The notes under the pieces: generated by a model
What the model was told of the DNA's origin: nothing
Databases searched by the model: none
What the model saw: only the letters and a program-made list of their open reading frames with translations
Shown: positions 1 to 7,517 of the stretch, in pieces
Position numbering within the stretch: the first letter of the stretch is position 1
Layout: each line of letters begins with the position of its first letter
Made by a program: the position numbers and the translations under genes
Virus record (IMG/VR): IMGVR_UViG_2690316115_000018
DNA: 7,865 nt
Origin: a virus
Lineage: Duplodnaviria > Heunggongvirae > Uroviricota > Caudoviricetes
Strand: one strand, 5' to 3'

Positions 1-330
1 GATAACAGAGGGCGTTGCAGCGGGGTTGTCACTTAAGCGTATGGTCAACCTGACAACCCGGTGTCCTCAACGGGGAAGGAATAACCCCTCCATACTTACC
101 GCCGCGCCATTTCGCGGATTGCCACAACCGGAAGCGCACGGTCGACGAAAATTTAACGACAGGCTATCTATGAACCAGCTACCTCGCCGTGCGCTTTCGC
201 GTTATGGTCTGACTTTTCAGAGAAATATCCTTTCAGTAAACTGTCAGTGCCGGATGTTCACCCGTGTCCGGCGCACGCACTCCACTTCACCCGTGGAGAA
301 CTCCTTAATTACCAACCCTCAGGAGGGTGA

Positions 331-564
331 ATGTTAAAATCAACTCTTATTGCTAAATGCCTTTATCAAAATCGCATGGTAAGCAGCATTTCAATAGGCG
401 AGTCTGCAGTTAAAAGTATTTTCGAAGAGTACTTTCCCGGGCATGATTTTAATAAATGGAATACCAAATTACCGCCAGCAGTTTCAACGCGTATTCTGAA
501 AGCAACCGAAAGAGCAAGTACAATTCGCGTTAACTATTTCATTAAAGATTTGTGGGATCTTTGA
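331..564 (+). CDS. hypothetical small protein (77 aa), AT-rich, convergent with early-left operon
   Basis: ATG at 331 preceded by AGGAGG (317-322) about 8 nt upstream; low-GC composition; 3' end overlaps the 3' end of minus-strand ORF 542..949 by 23 nt; no recognisable domain. Confidence 0.45.
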   Translation: MLKSTLIAKCLYQNRMVSSISIGESAVKSIFEEYFPGHDFNKWNTKLPPAVSTRILKATERASTIRVNYFIKDLWDL

Positions 565-949
565 TATCCACAGAGCCTAAAGTATGTGCATATGGATGTG
601 CTATTATGCGCCCTCGCAGATTTGCATCATTTTCTAAATTCACTGAACGAAACAGGGCATCAACAAGGCTCTGTACAATGCAAAGGCAATCGAAGACTGT
701 CGCCGTTTCTGTTTTGATTGATGAAAGAACATGGCCATTCACGCAAACAGAAATTACCCGTTTATTAACATCGCTTTCCTGCTTTTGATTATCAGAACCA
801 TATAGCCCAGAAAAAGCATTGCGCACATTACGAACCATATTATCGATGGTTTCTTTTTCTGCGGTACTAAGGTCAAGAGTAGCCAGTTGTGAACGAACTA
901 TATTCGATGCCATTTCCTGTAATGGCGTTGGTAAATCTTTAAATTCCAT
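542..949 (-). CDS. hypothetical protein (135 aa), distal gene of early-left operon
   Basis: ORF track; GAGG-type RBS upstream of ATG on minus strand (caacgaggctaatATG); AT-rich; only 22 nt downstream of the preceding minus-strand gene, so probably co-transcribed; no recognisable domain. Confidence 0.55.
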   Translation of the reverse strand: MEFKDLPTPLQEMASNIVRSQLATLDLSTAEKETIDNMVRNVRNAFSGLYGSDNQKQESDVNKRVISVCVNGHVLSSIKTETATVFDCLCIVQSLVDALFRSVNLENDANLRGRIIAHPYAHTLGSVDIKDPTNL

Positions 950-971
950 TATTAGCCTCGTTGGTTAGCTA

Positions 972-1190
972 TTAACGTGGGTATGTAATCATTCTGGCAA
1001 TGCTTAATGCCGCTGCTTTTTCCAGATTGGTGATATCCTGCTCCAGAGCGGACAGATTTTCAGCCTGCTTAGCCCTGGCTTCATTGGCCCATTTCAGGTC
1101 CTGCACCGCCTTAATTTTCTGGTGCATCCACTCATAAAGTTCATCATCGGTATAGTCTGGCGCGATGATGACGGGGTCTCGTTTCTGCAT
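972..1190 (-). CDS. hypothetical protein (72 aa), charged, coiled-coil-like
   Basis: ORF track; strong RBS on minus strand (AAGGAG, 6 nt, ATG); sits in early-left operon between the 118-aa and 135-aa genes. Confidence 0.55.
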   Translation of the reverse strand: MQKRDPVIIAPDYTDDELYEWMHQKIKAVQDLKWANEARAKQAENLSALEQDITNLEKAAALSIARMITYPR

Positions 1191-1262
1191 GTCGGCTCCT
1201 TGTGGTTAGCGTTGCCTGCTTTTTAACCACGTCAGGCGAGGTGGTATCCTCTGAGGGGTCTG

Positions 1263-1619
1263 TTACTCGAGAGGAAATTGGTTATGAATACAATCAAGTT
1301 TTCTTGCCCAGAATGTGGTGGCTAAGTCTTTGACACATCCTTTAAGCCGCAGGGCTCTGACAGTTTCGCGGGAGCCATCTGCAAAAATTGTGGTCACCTT
1401 GTAACTGAAGATGAGTCCTCGCAGTTCGATGACGAAATCGTTGACAATATCTTCGGTGCACTCACCAGAGACTTTCTGAAGTAAAGGCGCATACCGCTTA
1501 GTTACCGCTCTGATAACTCTTACCTGTCCGGCAATGGCGCTGATATCAATATAAAGCGCCATCGCTGTTTCTTTGCTGATCCCTGGACGCCTTCCATTCT
1601 GATGTTTGACTTCGCCCAC
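1263..1619 (-). CDS. hypothetical protein (118 aa), first gene downstream of pL-like promoter; GTG start
   Basis: ORF track; start codon is GTG (plus cac 1617-1619) with GAGGA about 7 nt upstream; alternative internal ATG exists (Met20); no recognisable domain, not N-like. Confidence 0.4.
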   Translation of the reverse strand: MGEVKHQNGRRPGISKETAMALYIDISAIAGQVRVIRAVTKRYAPLLQKVSGECTEDIVNDFVIELRGLIFSYKVTTIFADGSRETVRALRLKGCVKDLATTFWARKLDCIHNQFPLE

Positions 1620-1708
1620 TGAGAAATCCTCTGCTTCCCCTTAACGCCGGGTAGCGGAACTGTTTGCTGAGAACACCGTGCGGTGTCTTGATGAGTAGAA
1701 TTTAGAAT

Positions 1709-1738
1709 AGCCTAAGAGTTATGGTCAAGCTTTTTGTG
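1709..1738 (-). promoter_or_regulatory. pL-like early-left promoter (-35 TTGACC, 18-nt spacer, -10 TAAAAT on minus strand)
   Basis: minus-strand hexamers read directly from sequence (rc of plus 1733-1738 and 1709-1714); located in the 207-bp gap between the repressor gene and the first early-left gene; overlapped by an operator-like inverted repeat. Confidence 0.4.
1711..1726. promoter_or_regulatory. operator-like inverted repeat TTTAG-N6-CTAAG (OL-type)
   Basis: same half-site architecture (TTAG-N6-CTAA) as the two inverted repeats in the dicA-dicC intergenic region; overlaps the putative pL -10 and spacer. Confidence 0.4.
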
Positions 1739-1826
1739 TAGAAAAACCTAAGCTTCTTGATGTAAAAAACACAAGTATTTGAAAGTTTGTGCTTTTTATT
1801 ACAGAGAGTTGCGAAAAAAAGGGGGG

Positions 1827-2234
1827 TTATTTATTTGCGCTTCTTTTGCGAGCTTTGAGTAGTTCTTCAAAAAGTTTGTTGAAATTCTCAACTCGAGCAC
1901 GCATCTCTGACAACAGAGCCTTTTGCTCTGACTCAGGCAGTGCGTCGAACAGTTGAAGCAACTCTTTTTGATCTTCTGTCAGATTGACTGGCTGATTATC
2001 TGGGATCGGTTCGCCTGGTTGCTTATCTTCATCTCCAAAAAGAAGCCAAGTCGGCGAGCACTGAAGCGCCTGGCTCAGTGCGAATAATCTCTTCCCCGCT
2101 GGCTGTGTTTCATCTCTTTCCCATTGAGAAATTGTTACGTGAGCCACTTTGACCAGCTTACCTAATGCGGCCTGAGACAGTTTTAATTTTTTTCGCCTGT
2201 ATAAGAGGCGAGCACCGAAGGTTTCGTTTTTCAT
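1827..2234 (-). CDS. dicA: DicA-like XRE-family HTH repressor (prophage immunity repressor, no S24 peptidase domain)
   Basis: 135 aa; N-terminal HTH (LKLSQAALGKLVKVAHVTISQWERDETQP); motifs FALSQALQCSPTWLLFGDEDKQP and NFNKLFEELLKARKR match my recollection of E. coli K-12 DicA; divergent from a Cro-like gene across an operator-rich spacer. Confidence 0.85.
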   Translation of the reverse strand: MKNETFGARLLYRRKKLKLSQAALGKLVKVAHVTISQWERDETQPAGKRLFALSQALQCSPTWLLFGDEDKQPGEPIPDNQPVNLTEDQKELLQLFDALPESEQKALLSEMRARVENFNKLFEELLKARKRSANK

Positions 2235-2250
2235 ATTAGGTAATTCTAAT
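2235..2250. promoter_or_regulatory. operator-like inverted repeat ATTAG-N6-CTAAT adjacent to dicA start
   Basis: perfect 5-bp arms with 6-bp spacer read directly from sequence; same half-site as 2285-2302 and 1711-1726. Confidence 0.5.
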
Positions 2251-2255
2251 TTTTC

Positions 2256-2284
2256 TTGACTTAGGTTTCTCTACGATCTAGTTT
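2256..2284 (+). promoter_or_regulatory. PR-like promoter for the cro-like gene (-35 TTGACT 2256-2261, 17-nt spacer, -10 TAGTTT 2279-2284)
   Basis: hexamers read from sequence; operator half-site CTTAGG (2260-2265) overlaps the -35 and the full operator 2285-2302 abuts the -10. Confidence 0.45.
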
Positions 2285-2302
2285 CCTTAGGAAAATCTAA
2301 GG
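2285..2302. promoter_or_regulatory. operator-like inverted repeat CCTTAG-N6-CTAAGG
   Basis: perfect 6-bp arms, 6-bp spacer; lies between the PR-like -10 and the cro-like RBS. Confidence 0.5.
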
Positions 2303-2310
2303 GGTTCGAT

Positions 2311-2538
2311 ATGTTGAAAATTGATGCTATAGCGTTTTTTGGCAGCAAAACAAAGCTTGCCAATGTCGCAGGAGTTAGGCTGGCAAGCGTTGCTGCATGG
2401 GGGGAACTGGTTCCTGAAGGTCGCGCGATGCGCCTGCAAGAGGCATCCGGCGGGGAACTTCAGTACGACCCCAAAGTTTATGACGAATATCGTAAGGCAA
2501 AGCGGGCGGGGCGGTTGAACAATGAAAATCACCACTGA
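2311..2538 (+). CDS. dicC: DicC / P22-Cro-like small DNA-binding regulator (YdaS family)
   Basis: 75 aa; RBS AAGGGG about 7 nt upstream; C-terminal LVPEGRAMRLQEASGGELQYDPKVY resembles P22 Cro (VIPEKDAYRLEIVTAGALKYQ) and my recollection of K-12 DicC; divergent from dicA-like repressor. Confidence 0.85.
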   Translation: MLKIDAIAFFGSKTKLANVAGVRLASVAAWGELVPEGRAMRLQEASGGELQYDPKVYDEYRKAKRAGRLNNENHH

Positions 2539-3073
2539 ACAGGTTTGTGAGGCTCTGGATACCTGGGTATGCCGACCAGGAATGACACAGGAGCAGGCGA
2601 CGATATTAATCACGGAAGCATTCTGGGCTCTGAAAGAACGCCCGAACATCGATGTTCAACGCGTCACGTTTAATGATGGCGAGGTTGATCAACGGGCGCT
2701 GGGCGTTAACCGGGTGAAGATATTCGAACGCTGGAAAGCTATCGACACCAGAGATAAGCGTGACAAATTCACGGCGCTGATTCCGGCAATTATGGAGGCT
2801 ATCCGGATCAGCGATTTCAGATTGTATTGTGAAATTACTGACGGAAAAAGCATTACGTACATGATCGCCGGGTTAAACAAAGAATATGGCGATGTGGTGG
2901 AGTCCGGGCTGCTTTTTGCGGATCCAGTTGTTGTGGAACGTGAGACTGACGAGCTTATAGAAAAAGCTATTGCTTTCAAGCACGCGTATCGTCAGCAATA
3001 CCAATATTACTTTGCAGATAAACAAATGTCTGCCAGGGGTTCGTATGAGTATCGATGCACTACGATGGGCTAA
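2522..3073 (+). CDS. YdaT/CII-like protein (183 aa) in the cII position
   Basis: ORF track; overlaps cro-like stop by 17 nt; position (cro, this gene, replication genes) and weak motif similarity (MKI..E.., IPAI) to my recollection of Rac YdaT; assignment tentative. Confidence 0.55.
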   Translation: MKITTEQVCEALDTWVCRPGMTQEQATILITEAFWALKERPNIDVQRVTFNDGEVDQRALGVNRVKIFERWKAIDTRDKRDKFTALIPAIMEAIRISDFRLYCEITDGKSITYMIAGLNKEYGDVVESGLLFADPVVVERETDELIEKAIAFKHAYRQQYQYYFADKQMSARGSYEYRCTTMG

Positions 3074-5468: not shown

Positions 5469-5915
5469 CGCGATAACGGTCAAAAATTATGGCGCTGACA
5501 CTTTTGTGCCACTGGAGATGACTGTACCTAAGTTCAGGGGAGAAGAACACGTCCGGTGGGATGGTCGGGCCAGATTTAAAGGGCAGGTCATGGCTCCAGC
5601 CTGTACGCTGGCAATGGAGGCTGCCTGGCGGGAAATTGATATGGGAACCACGCCACTCAGGGATTTACTGCCGGTCCAGAGAATAAATTCCTGTTACGGT
5701 TACACCACTGTGATCTTGCAAGTGCAGGAAAGTAGGTCTACACGGTAACGCGAGTGCGTGTAACTTTTGATGTCATTCCCGTAGAAACACCGGACAAATT
5801 TTCGCTGACAGGTCATGCAGAAGGTATAAATCTGCAGATTATGGACAATTACGGATATCCGGCAAGAGCCGGAAAAAGCATGCCGCCTCTAATTCTCAGT
5901 GGAAGATGGACTTGA
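5437..5915 (+). pseudogene. possible frameshifted gene remnant (open frames 5437-5748 and 5736-5915)
   Basis: GC-normal region whose open reading switches frame twice (frame of 5304, then frame of 5437, then frame of 5769); no good RBS for the 103-aa ORF (GTG start); no family recognised. Confidence 0.25.
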
Positions 5916-5974
5916 TTATACTCATTGCATTGTCAGAAATAGTTATCCATTAAAGGCTGGCTATTCCAAACAGG

Positions 5975-6002
5975 ATGTTGATTACAAAAATGTAATCAAC
6001 AT
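5975..6002. promoter_or_regulatory. 28-bp palindrome ATGTTGATTACA-aaaa-TGTAATCAACAT upstream of the binding-protein gene
   Basis: perfect 12-bp arms read directly; AT-rich region 165 bp upstream of the ATG; a TATAAT hexamer lies at 6029-6034. Confidence 0.4.
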
Positions 6003-6166
6003 GTAAGGTTTATACTCTTCAATATGCGTATAATTTTCCTTATTTTGTTGACTTTAAATAACAAGCTATGCACGAGGTAAAGTCGGATAAGTTTATCTGG
6101 ATGTAATATATATTATTTGTAGTGTTTATAACTTTATTTCATGATAACCAATAAAAGGAGTTTTTT

Positions 6167-6925
6167 ATGAGGAGCATAATGGCAGGTTTTTTAATATTCC
6201 TGTCTTCTGCTGCTTATGCTGATATCAATCTGTATGGTCCTGGTGGCCCGCATACAGCCTTGCTTGATGCAGCCAAACTTTATGCCGAAAAAACAGGTAT
6301 TATAGTGAACGTTCATTACGGCCCACAGAACAAATGGAATGAAGATGCCAAAAAAAATGCAGATATCTTGTTTGGCGCATCAGAACAATCTGCTCTGGCT
6401 ATCATTCGGGACCATAAAGACAGCTTCAGTGAAAAAGATATTCAGCCTCTTTATCTGCGAAAAAGTATTTTACTGGTAAAGAAAGGTAATCCTAAAAATA
6501 TCCGGAGTATTGACGACCTGACCAGACCTGGGATTGGCGTAATTGTTAATGATGGTGGTGGTACCAGTAATACATCAGGCACTGGCGTCTGGGAAGATAT
6601 TGCCGGACGTAAAGGGAATATAGAAACTGTCGCCGCAATCCGAAAAAATATTATTTTATATGCGCCCAATAGCGGAACTGCACGTAAGGCTCTTGAGAAT
6701 CAGCCTGGAGCAGATGTCTGGATAACCTGGGCTGACTGGGCAGCCAGTAATCCAGAAATTGGTGATGTCGTGGAAATAGCGCCAGACTACGTGATATGGC
6801 GTGATATGAACATTACAGTACGTCAGGATGCAAATGATGAAACCCGTCGATTTGCAGAATGGCTACAAACCGATGAAGCGGCGCCTGCATTCAAAAAATA
6901 TGGCTGGACCAGGAAAGGCACTTGA
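6167..6925 (+). CDS. secreted orphan periplasmic solute-binding protein, ModA-like (PBP type 2) fold; prophage moron
   Basis: 252 aa; AAGGAG 6 nt upstream of ATG; Sec signal peptide MRSIMAGFLIFLSSAAYA with AYA-D cleavage motif, no lipobox Cys; C-terminal FAEWLQTDEAAPAFKKYGWTRKG parallels my recollection of ModA (FYDYLKGPQAAEIFKRYGFTIK); low-GC gene with AT-rich upstream region; no permease or ATPase genes nearby. Confidence 0.75.
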   Translation: MRSIMAGFLIFLSSAAYADINLYGPGGPHTALLDAAKLYAEKTGIIVNVHYGPQNKWNEDAKKNADILFGASEQSALAIIRDHKDSFSEKDIQPLYLRKSILLVKKGNPKNIRSIDDLTRPGIGVIVNDGGGTSNTSGTGVWEDIAGRKGNIETVAAIRKNIILYAPNSGTARKALENQPGADVWITWADWAASNPEIGDVVEIAPDYVIWRDMNITVRQDANDETRRFAEWLQTDEAAPAFKKYGWTRKGT

Positions 6926-7110: not shown

Positions 7111-7260
7111 TGCGGGTGCTTGAGGCTATCTGCCTCGGGCATGAACACCAACGGCAGATAGATAAAAGCCCCACCCGACTATAAATCGAAGTGAGGCCCC
7201 TATATGCTCGTCACATATAGATTGCCTCTTACGGACCGAAAGGTCAAGGAGAAGCAGGCT
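7111..7260 (+). promoter_or_regulatory. hok mRNA 5' leader with tac-like hairpin and 5'/3' fold-back element
   Basis: hairpin GAGGC-tatct-GCCTC (7122-7136); alternative pairing CTATCTGCC (7125-7133) with GGCAGATAG (7155-7163); 5' end TGCGGGTGCTTGAG (7111-7124) is complementary to 3' CTCAACGCACCCGCA (7467-7481). Confidence 0.5.
7155..7215 (-). ncRNA. putative Sok-like antisense RNA (approximate bounds)
   Basis: by analogy to the sokC/mokC arrangement; minus-strand -35 TTGACC (rc of plus 7242-7247) overlaps the hok SD region, but the -10 at 17-nt spacing (CAATCT) is weak, and no clear terminator was found; existence not demonstrated. Confidence 0.3.
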
Positions 7261-7416
7261 ATGAAGCAGCAAAAGGCGATGTTAATCGCCCTGATCGTCA
7301 TCTGTTTAACCGTCATAGTGACGGCACTGGTAACGAGGAAAGACCTCTGCGAGGTACGAATCCGAACCGGCCAGACGGAGGTCGCTGTCTTCACAGCTTA
7401 CGAACCTGAGGAGTAA
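7204..7416 (+). CDS. Mok-like reading frame (in-frame N-terminal extension of Hok, 70 aa)
   Basis: ATG 7204 in frame with hok; extension MLVTYRLPLTDRKVKEKQA resembles my recollection of K-12 MokC (MLNTCRVPLTDRKVKEKRA). Confidence 0.5.
   Translation: MLVTYRLPLTDRKVKEKQAMKQQKAMLIALIVICLTVIVTALVTRKDLCEVRIRTGQTEVAVFTAYEPEE
7261..7416 (+). CDS. hokD: Hok-family type I toxin, HokD(RelF)-like, 51 aa membrane peptide
   Basis: MKQQKAMLIALIVICLTVIVTALVTRKDLCEVRIRTGQTEVAVFTAYEPEE matches my recollection of E. coli HokD and is close to HokC/Gef; AAGGAG 9 nt upstream; single transmembrane helix. Confidence 0.9.
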   Translation: MKQQKAMLIALIVICLTVIVTALVTRKDLCEVRIRTGQTEVAVFTAYEPEE

Positions 7417-7485
7417 GAGACCAGGCGGGGGAGAAATCCCTCGCCACCTCTGATGTGTCAGGCATCCTCAACGCACCCGCACTTA

Positions 7486-7517
7486 ACCCGCTTCGGCGGG
7501 TTTTTGTTTTTATTTTC
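7486..7517 (+). terminator. rho-independent terminator of hok mRNA
   Basis: hairpin ACCCGC-ttcg-GCGGGT followed by TTTTTGTTTTTATTTT. Confidence 0.75.

Follow-up and report, generated by a model that had tools for sequence, protein, structure and literature searches.

A convergent, 3′-overlapping gene pair inserted into the dicBF-type early-left operon of lambdoid prophages: a candidate effector/neutraliser module

We analysed a 7,865-nucleotide (nt) stretch of a tailed-phage genome, IMG/VR record IMGVR_UViG_2690316115_000018 (hereafter the window), with a focus on four small genes at positions 331–1619, which a first-pass annotation made from the letters alone had set apart as one unrecognisable system next to the phage repressor. 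That grouping is not supported: the region forms the part nearest the promoter of a dicBF-type early-left operon in an ompW-integrated lambdoid prophage, one of the four genes being ydfC. Only two of them behave as a unit and as a discrete acquired module, namely gene A, coding for a protein of 77 amino acids (aa), and the convergent gene for a 135-aa protein (N-B) that combines an N domain with a B domain. Positions 1–2300 of the window are 100% identical to the lambdoid prophage lying beside ompW in the O145:H28, O26, O103 and O111 strains of Escherichia coli, as well as to deposited “PPompW” phage records, and part of the stretch is present in 4344 of 5426 complete E. coli genomes. In an annotated identical genomic locus, L001 (whose coordinates exceed those of the window by 9000), the genes on the minus strand run in the order dicA, a 99-aa gene, ydfC, the 135-aa gene with the 77-aa gene convergent to it, a gap of ~570 nt, dicB, a DUF1482 gene (ydfD), and the exonuclease, xis and int genes.

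The identification of the operon follows from several concordant matches. The repressor gene (1827–2234, minus strand) is of the DicA type (NCBIfam PRK09706 DicA, 241.6 bits against a cut-off of 101, aligned over residues 1–135 of 135) and its divergent partner matches DicC (167.6 bits; cut-off 130); ydfC, dicB and ydfD are annotated; the small RNA DicF is found at full length on the minus strand at L001 8945–8996 (Rfam, 75 bits; gathering score 48); and the published operon agrees. Thus, the DicA-like repressor and the immunity-proximal early-left position noticed at the outset were both right. The absence of DicB noted with them does not extend to the operon: DicF lies 5 nt to the left of window position 1 and dicB adjoins it just outside the window, which is why DicB was missed.

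The dicBF operon of the prophage Qin consists of ydfA-ydfB-ydfC, followed by a long untranslated leader with DicF and then by dicB and ydfD; no function is known for ydfA, ydfB or ydfC, expression of the operon is toxic, and its induction with dicF and dicB deleted is non-toxic (PMC5069750). Qin lacks the cassette described below, so the last result is uninformative on A and B. DicB is further known to block ManYZ-dependent phage entry (PMC6832061). The locus studied here shares with Qin the divergent DicA/DicC pair, ydfC, the conserved leader, DicF, the downstream dicB and ydfD (DUF1482), and the position beside the exonuclease, xis and int genes. It differs in having a single unrelated 118/99-aa gene of the family phrog_21318 at the start of the operon, where Qin has ydfA and ydfB, and a 634-bp cassette with A and N-B between ydfC and the leader; moreover, Qin is cryptic, whereas the prophage here is complete-looking by annotation. 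The GC-rich leader of the dicBF transcript (1–317, minus strand, 53.6% GC) and ydfC are nearly invariant across the window and the phages 813R8, Tritos and Evi. A coding sequence on the plus strand of this leader is given in some phage records and corresponds to the window open reading frame (ORF) at 26–337; its Arg-rich low-complexity translation looks spurious.

The four ORFs were recovered as first called in place, strand and length. Gene A (331–564, plus strand) runs convergently to the operon, while the 135-aa gene (542–949), ydfC (972–1190, 72 aa) and the first operon gene (1263–1619; 118 aa from a GTG at 1619, or 99 aa from an ATG at 1562) all lie on the minus strand, separated by gaps of 22 nt and 72 nt. 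Their ribosome-binding sites (RBSs) are graded acceptable to strong, with Shine–Dalgarno motifs AGGAGG for gene A, GAGG for the 135-aa gene, AAGGAG for ydfC and GAGGA for the GTG start at 1619, which bears out the good RBSs and tight spacing originally claimed. The 3′ ends of the 77-aa and 135-aa genes do overlap by 23 nt, at 542–564. The first-pass impression that the leftmost genes are more AT-rich holds for 318–951 (39.1% GC) but not for ydfC (48.4%) and the first gene (45.7%), whose GC content is near that of dicA (45.1%). We regard this anatomy of the region as very probable.

Each of the four proteins matches a PHROG family of unknown function (E about 1e-39 to 1e-67). Scans of all four against Pfam, NCBIfam and PADLOC returned only noise, PADLOC-DB v2 yielded zero families at E <= 1, and both single-sequence and profile searches of the PDB returned no relative. 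None carries a Pfam or PHROG annotation as N, Kil, CIII, Rex or SieB, in agreement with the initial statement that these are not N, Kil, Rex or SieB; Kil in Evi and DicB in the present prophage are encoded by other genes, located more to the left. Hence, “unrecognisable” is apt as regards Pfam, NCBIfam, PADLOC and PDB relatives, and inapt in that the 72-aa gene is ydfC and all four products belong to PHROG families.

Alignment with the phages 813R8, Tritos and Evi resolves window positions 318–951 as a clean 634-bp indel of 39.1% GC, which carries A and N-B, starts at the RBS of gene A and stops 2 nt short of the ATG that opens the 135-aa gene. In 813R8 and Tritos, which are devoid of the insert, the sequence ending in TTACCAACC is joined directly to TTAGC, with ydfC ending three bases later; Evi has the insert, together with a different repressor and with Kil where DicB would be. 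The cassette by itself is present in 659 of the 5426 complete E. coli genomes (~12%), many O157:H7 strains among them, and is missing from many closely related prophages. The first-gene slot is likewise modular, being occupied by the 118-aa gene in 813R8 and Evi and by ydfA (DUF1391) with ydfB in Tritos, PhiR42_1, the locus L008 and other Qin-like loci. The slot is therefore variable between related prophages, which the comparison suggested at the outset was meant to test, and small two-gene cassettes are exchanged at the position that separates ydfC from the DicF leader. The surmise of a separately acquired cassette fits the AT-rich pair within 318–951, with its exact boundaries, but not the first gene and ydfC, which lie outside the insertion.

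Two observations concern exchange at this slot. Within otherwise ~99%-identical cassettes there is a sharply divergent patch at ~860–930 (codons ~7–30 of the 135-aa gene), which reads TPLQEMASNIVRSQLATLDLSTAE in the window and KEIQTIAATTLGDSLVKIDPAYTK in Evi and most other cassettes; the window's allele is that of N-domain proteins with other C-termini, indicating that the cassette is itself recombinant. In another prophage (L007, 2694–3172), which carries a 201-aa N-B variant with a C-terminal extension, a PaaA2/ParE toxin–antitoxin (TA) pair with its own helix-turn-helix regulator sits between the repressor and ydfA; thus, classical TA cassettes also gather in the dicBF operon.

The product of gene A matches phrog_10348 end to end (E = 1.1e-47). 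We recovered 33 clustered homologues, nearly all of exactly 77 aa and 55–72% identical, from Klebsiella, Raoultella, Serratia, Dickeya, Xenorhabdus, Morganella, Yersinia and Salmonella, along with Proteus and Photorhabdus; their alignment has 27 invariant columns. A scan of genome contigs in a collection with one genome per species gave only four loci. The AlphaFold2 model of A is a compact bundle of five helices predicted with high confidence (predicted local distance difference test score, pLDDT, 97.3; predicted template-modelling score 0.87). A Foldseek search of the PDB with this model gave no hit below E = 5, a profile search of PDB sequences gave none, no helix-turn-helix-like structural match was found, and a search of BFVD returned just one homologue, 49% identical. 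A is a real, conserved protein without recognisable relatives among solved structures. Queries of the searchable literature by RefSeq accessions, peptide strings and PHROG identifiers retrieved no description of the A/B module.

The 135-aa protein has a composite architecture. Its N domain (residues 1–55; 785–949, minus strand) is a two-helix module that recurs with very little change ahead of six or more unrelated C-termini, in proteins of 122, 124/126, 129, 133/137, 201 and 208/212 aa, all from Escherichia or Salmonella prophages, and it matches the first ~55 positions of phrog_6937, phrog_2151, phrog_9419 and phrog_33007. The B domain (residues 62–135; 542–766, minus strand; phrog_23433), of ~74 residues, is homologous to stand-alone proteins of 77–80 aa that are encoded convergently to A in other genera. 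It displays eight invariant columns and the motif VNG..T..A..D...LE..AN..G.T..H, while its last 7 codons are the antisense of the last codons of A. The AlphaFold2 model of the whole protein is of low confidence (pLDDT 48): it shows the N domain as two helices and B as a β-hairpin, a long helix and a disordered tail, the latter holding the most strongly conserved motif. B also tolerates other fusions at its N-terminus, namely a Zn-ribbon (156 aa) and a YdfC-like domain (193 and 203 aa; L100 and L102), a YdfC-B fusion matching both phrog_1744 (E = 5e-10) and phrog_23433 (E = 8e-16) within one protein.

The association of A with B was evaluated in ~90 loci gathered by A, which comprise 29 distinct pair sequences and 15 lineages outside E. 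coli. Every intact A in these loci, down to 57% identity, faces a convergent B with an overlap of exactly 23 nt, and A without B was never seen among the loci examined. The hosts include O157:H7, O145, O26 and O111 strains of Shiga toxin-producing E. coli and the bearers of Klebsiella, Serratia, Proteus, Dickeya, Xenorhabdus and Photorhabdus prophages, and hundreds of genomes carry the ORFs intact behind strong RBSs. In prophages of Serratia, Klebsiella and Dickeya, A converges on a B gene that stands alone, again with an overlap of 23 nt and amid unrelated flanking genes; the pair there too is early-left, downstream of an S24-type cI repressor, and directly follows the repressor in four of the six loci shown. 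Searching by B instead gave 18 loci, 15 of them with A, including three with a distant A (35% identity) that is still convergent, with a longer overlap. B occurs without A in L148, L155 and L157 and in the E. coli 201-aa proteins, wherein a 73-residue extension replaces the last 7 residues of B; in Photorhabdus, A is frameshifted and B intact. The pairwise distances of A and B are correlated (Mantel r = 0.82, p ~ 2e-4), and B evolves faster, with a mean distance of 0.47 against 0.27 for A.

The other two genes of the region are drawn in more loosely. YdfC-like domains adjoin the pair in Proteus and in L156/L158; from these neighbours, the YdfC-B fusions and a homologue of the first gene that follows B in L148, it emerges that the four families recur as neighbours, with A/B as the core.

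Comparable arrangements are seen in other cassettes of the same slot. There, other N-domain proteins are each accompanied by their own unrelated convergent small gene of 63, 69 or 76 aa (phrog_2605, phrog_4274 and phrog_18692), and the junction and RBS (CCAACC followed by CTCAGGAGGGTGAA) are common to three of the four cassette types. A second convergent module with this architecture (L105–L142; e.g., L111, 2501–2710 on the plus and 2679–3038 on the minus strand) joins the phrog_2605 partner (63/69 aa) to a convergent gene with a C-terminal “ext” domain (..NIKPT..) in 38 of 38 loci, with overlaps of 23 or 32 nt and with shuffled N-terminal domains. The rule appears to be that the domain nearest the C-terminus goes with the convergent small gene.

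As for expression, a promoter-like site (TTGACC-18-TAAATT, 1728→1699, minus strand) lies in the intergenic region between the repressor and the first gene (1620–1826, minus strand), which is pL/dicBp-like and has putative operator half-sites; the first-pass call of a pL-like promoter/operator is thereby supported for the promoter-like site, with the operators staying putative. Of the five CCTAAG sites in the window, four flank dicA, those at 1711 and 1747 being mirrored by 2260 and 2286, while the CCTAAG count alone is not significant. Upstream of A in E. coli, no σ70 consensus promoter reached the threshold in the ~830 nt scanned (L001 from 8500). No Rfam family matched within window 1–2300, and the near-palindromic 23-nt A/B overlap folds no better than its shuffles (z-scores −1.15 to +1.0).

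Outside E. coli, a conserved promoter-like motif, TTCACC-N16-TGgTATCTT, was read by eye upstream of A (L018 3932–4006, L021, L092, L097, L099, L017 and others; the window counterpart would be 262–336), and the E. coli cassette is devoid of it. In those loci two 5′ hairpins also precede A, the second pairing with the Shine–Dalgarno region and showing few compensatory changes; 83% of cells are paired, as against ~45% in slid controls. In E. coli, a CTCCT/AGGAG pairing could act like the second hairpin. A terminator-like site follows antisense passage through A in Klebsiella, and the window has, on its plus strand at 995–1021, a terminator-like hairpin and T-run within the 3′-terminal part of ydfC; an mRNA of A, if transcribed, could extend that far, as antisense to the entire 135-aa gene. 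Terminator-like sites are no more numerous than in shuffles.

We propose that A and B form an antagonistic protein pair, in which A would be a stable, compact effector and B its cognate, fast-evolving and partly disordered binding or neutralising domain, the binding itself being putative. B would be made in the immediate-early transcript once the operon promoter is derepressed, in a logic like that of toxin–antitoxin systems or of prophage exclusion with self-immunity, as in SieB/Esc and BstA/aba, and a further, reciprocal layer of control would come from the convergent transcription. B in E. coli is attached to a shared two-helix N domain, which bears other C-termini as well, each with its own convergent partner. 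YdfC and the 118/99-aa protein, as recurrent neighbours, may be accessory parts. We give this reading a probability of roughly 30–35%. It draws on the strict pairing, on A never being alone while B is sometimes orphaned, on the faster evolution and partial disorder of B, on its tolerance of fusions and on its place in the immediate-early transcript; such an asymmetry is typical of effector/antidote pairs. The notion of an undescribed accessory system with which the analysis began is accordingly kept here as a hypothesis, and a role of these genes in defence or host takeover is something we only infer.

Several facts weigh against an effector/neutraliser pair. Neither A nor B matches a toxin, antitoxin or defence family; their binding is putative only; they are convergent rather than co-transcribed, which is atypical of type II TA systems; and the E. 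coli locus offers no recognisable promoter for A, and the cassette starts at its RBS. The sample is dominated by near-identical E. coli copies. Furthermore, overlapping genes are co-inherited whatever their function, so that strict pairing and co-varying distances are expected in part without any functional link.

This last point leads to a doubtful but serious competitor, namely that these are unlinked small early proteins, each host-modulating or housekeeping like Kil, DicB and YdfD, with the linkage of A and B purely physical. Each of the characterised products of the operon (DicF, DicB and YdfD) acts by itself on its targets in the host, domains are shuffled freely within a strongly mosaic slot, overlapping genes are hard to part by recombination, and B is found with other partners or none. 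Yet the 23-nt overlap and the pairing persist down to 57% identity in A and about 30–40% in B, across genera and contexts; the distant A remains convergent to B with another overlap; solitary genes are only ever those of B; and a second, unrelated module has the same architecture. One might instead see the arrangement as a transcriptional gate, in which transcription of A collides with or silences leaky operon transcripts before they reach the toxic distal dicF/dicB or kil, the proteins being secondary. A does always lie between the promoter-proximal gene or genes and the rest of the early-left operon, dicBF expression is toxic (PMC5069750), and the promoter-like motif with its two hairpins outside E. 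coli and the Klebsiella terminator-like site would suit such a role. We consider it distinctly unlikely, given that both products are conserved as proteins (A with 27 invariant columns, a length of 77 aa in nearly all homologues and a pLDDT of 97), that the E. coli cassette has neither the promoter-like motif nor a consensus promoter and that the overlap is without significant RNA structure.

It is also conceivable that the pair regulates the lysis–lysogeny decision, with A as a small antirepressor or switch modulator and B as its early-expressed inhibitor: the pair adjoins the immunity region, where small proteins are typical, the modelled β-hairpin-plus-helix core of B could dimerise or bind DNA, and a palindromic motif lies upstream of A outside E. 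coli. The repressors that accompany the cassette are, however, of unrelated types (a non-cleavable DicA-type one here, S24/LexA-like ones in L006 and L015–L020, and another in Evi), which makes a repressor-specific partner unlikely; many close relatives do without the cassette, and A shows no helix-turn-helix-like structural match. Taken together, we deem regulation of this kind very unlikely. As for the genes being decaying remnants or annotation artefacts devoid of function, one may point to nearby pseudogenes such as a frameshifted fimbrial gene, to the missing promoter of A and to the ambiguous start of the first gene; against intact ORFs with strong RBSs in hundreds of genomes, conservation across genera and the presence of the cassette in phages that are inducible or have been sequenced (e.g., Evi and those of the PPompW records), this seems to us scarcely credible.

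A and B resemble several known systems and differ from each. Like type II TA systems (e.g., PaaR2-PaaA2-ParE2, found in the same operon in L007), they are two small adjacent genes in prophages, strictly paired, one partner folded and conserved and the other faster-evolving, partly disordered and sometimes orphaned; the pattern of obligate co-occurrence with orphan antitoxins allowed is seen here too, in that B occurs without an intact A in L148, L155, L157, L023 and the 201-aa proteins. Unlike those systems, A and B are convergent and 3′-overlapping rather than bicistronic and match no toxin or antitoxin family, and toxicity of A is putative. Among type I TA systems, txpA/RatA and bsrG/SR4 have convergent, 3′-overlapping transcripts. 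They share with A/B this layout and the location inside prophages, and differ in that both partners here are conserved soluble proteins, A being a compact five-helix one, with no hydrophobic toxin peptide and no significant RNA structure in the overlap.

Of the prophage exclusion proteins, SieB resides in the membrane, and BstA is large and associated with DNA. The immunity-proximal slot and the proposed logic, namely an effector in the lysogen and an antidote from the resident's early expression, recall the exclusion systems with self-immunity SieB-Esc of P22 and lambda and BstA/aba (PMC8585504 for the latter). A and B have no sequence or structural similarity to these, and the role of antidote would fall to a protein domain of its own, where those systems have an internal translation product or a DNA element. 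In polymorphic toxin/immunity cassettes, a conserved N-terminal module precedes a swappable C-terminal domain with a cognate neighbouring gene. The N domain with its at least six C-termini, and the co-variation of the C-terminal-most domain with the adjacent small gene, are reminiscent of this; A and B are nonetheless tiny, phage-encoded and without secretion or delivery domains, the neighbour is convergent, and B stands alone outside E. coli.

Going further, A/B could be the first known member of a class of prophage modules that is as yet undescribed, in which a convergent, 3′-overlapping effector and an early-expressed antidote would form a cassette in the first slot after the early-left promoter of Enterobacterales lambdoid prophages, the E. 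coli antidotes plugging into an N-domain adaptor or YdfC. Lysogens would thereby exclude other phages while the resident self-immunises upon induction, and A would represent a new fold with a new host or phage target. We put this forward as an unlikely extrapolation.

Turning to the neighbours of the pair, the start of the first operon gene is ATG 1562 (99 aa) in RefSeq, whereas the GTG at 1619 has a better Shine–Dalgarno motif than that ATG. As the homologues also have 10–13 extra N-terminal residues, the 118-aa reading is plausible. The family is small, with 11 representatives among 1.84 billion proteins; its true members are of 85–103 aa and have no Pfam domain match. A weak resemblance to the Protein L B1 domain, which Pfam and the PDB gave for the 99-aa protein, was hence dismissed as a chance match, as were all the matches of this gene to repeat proteins (Protein L, HYR and ankyrin repeat proteins). 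In L148 (1480–2013), which has no A gene, a 97-aa homologue of the first gene comes right after a stand-alone B, both on one strand; this links the family to the B domain in a distant phage. The ydfC gene (RefSeq “protein YdfC”, WP_001171903; phrog_1744, E = 9.1e-39) is described as without known function in a 2026 preprint, and the literature on YdfC gives no native function.

Elsewhere in the window we noted further elements of potential interest. A hok/sok type I TA system is encoded at 7114–7416 (Rfam sok, 103.9 bits; hokD in RefSeq), followed at 7425–7506 by an isrK-like match that is below threshold (24.9 bits against a gathering score of 50). An AT-rich island (5473–6925, 33–41% GC) with a frameshifted fimbrial pseudogene and the AcfC-family adhesin gene paa (6167–6925) looks like a virulence moron in the early-right region of the prophage. 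The gene after dicC (2522–3073) is labelled “toxin YdaT family” by Pfam and RefSeq (E = 3e-05), but it matches the PHROG CII-like transcriptional activator far better (E = 4.5e-40), so that to call it a toxin is probably misleading here.

Most E. coli genomes have a dicBF operon, whose known outputs are a cell-division inhibitor, a regulatory small RNA and a block to phage entry; the other genes of the operon are still blank. Should the region prove to hold no effector/antidote pair, it would stand as a well-delimited case of lambdoid mosaicism; should A and B be such a pair, they would add to this operon a compact new prophage exclusion or addiction module, along with a new fold.

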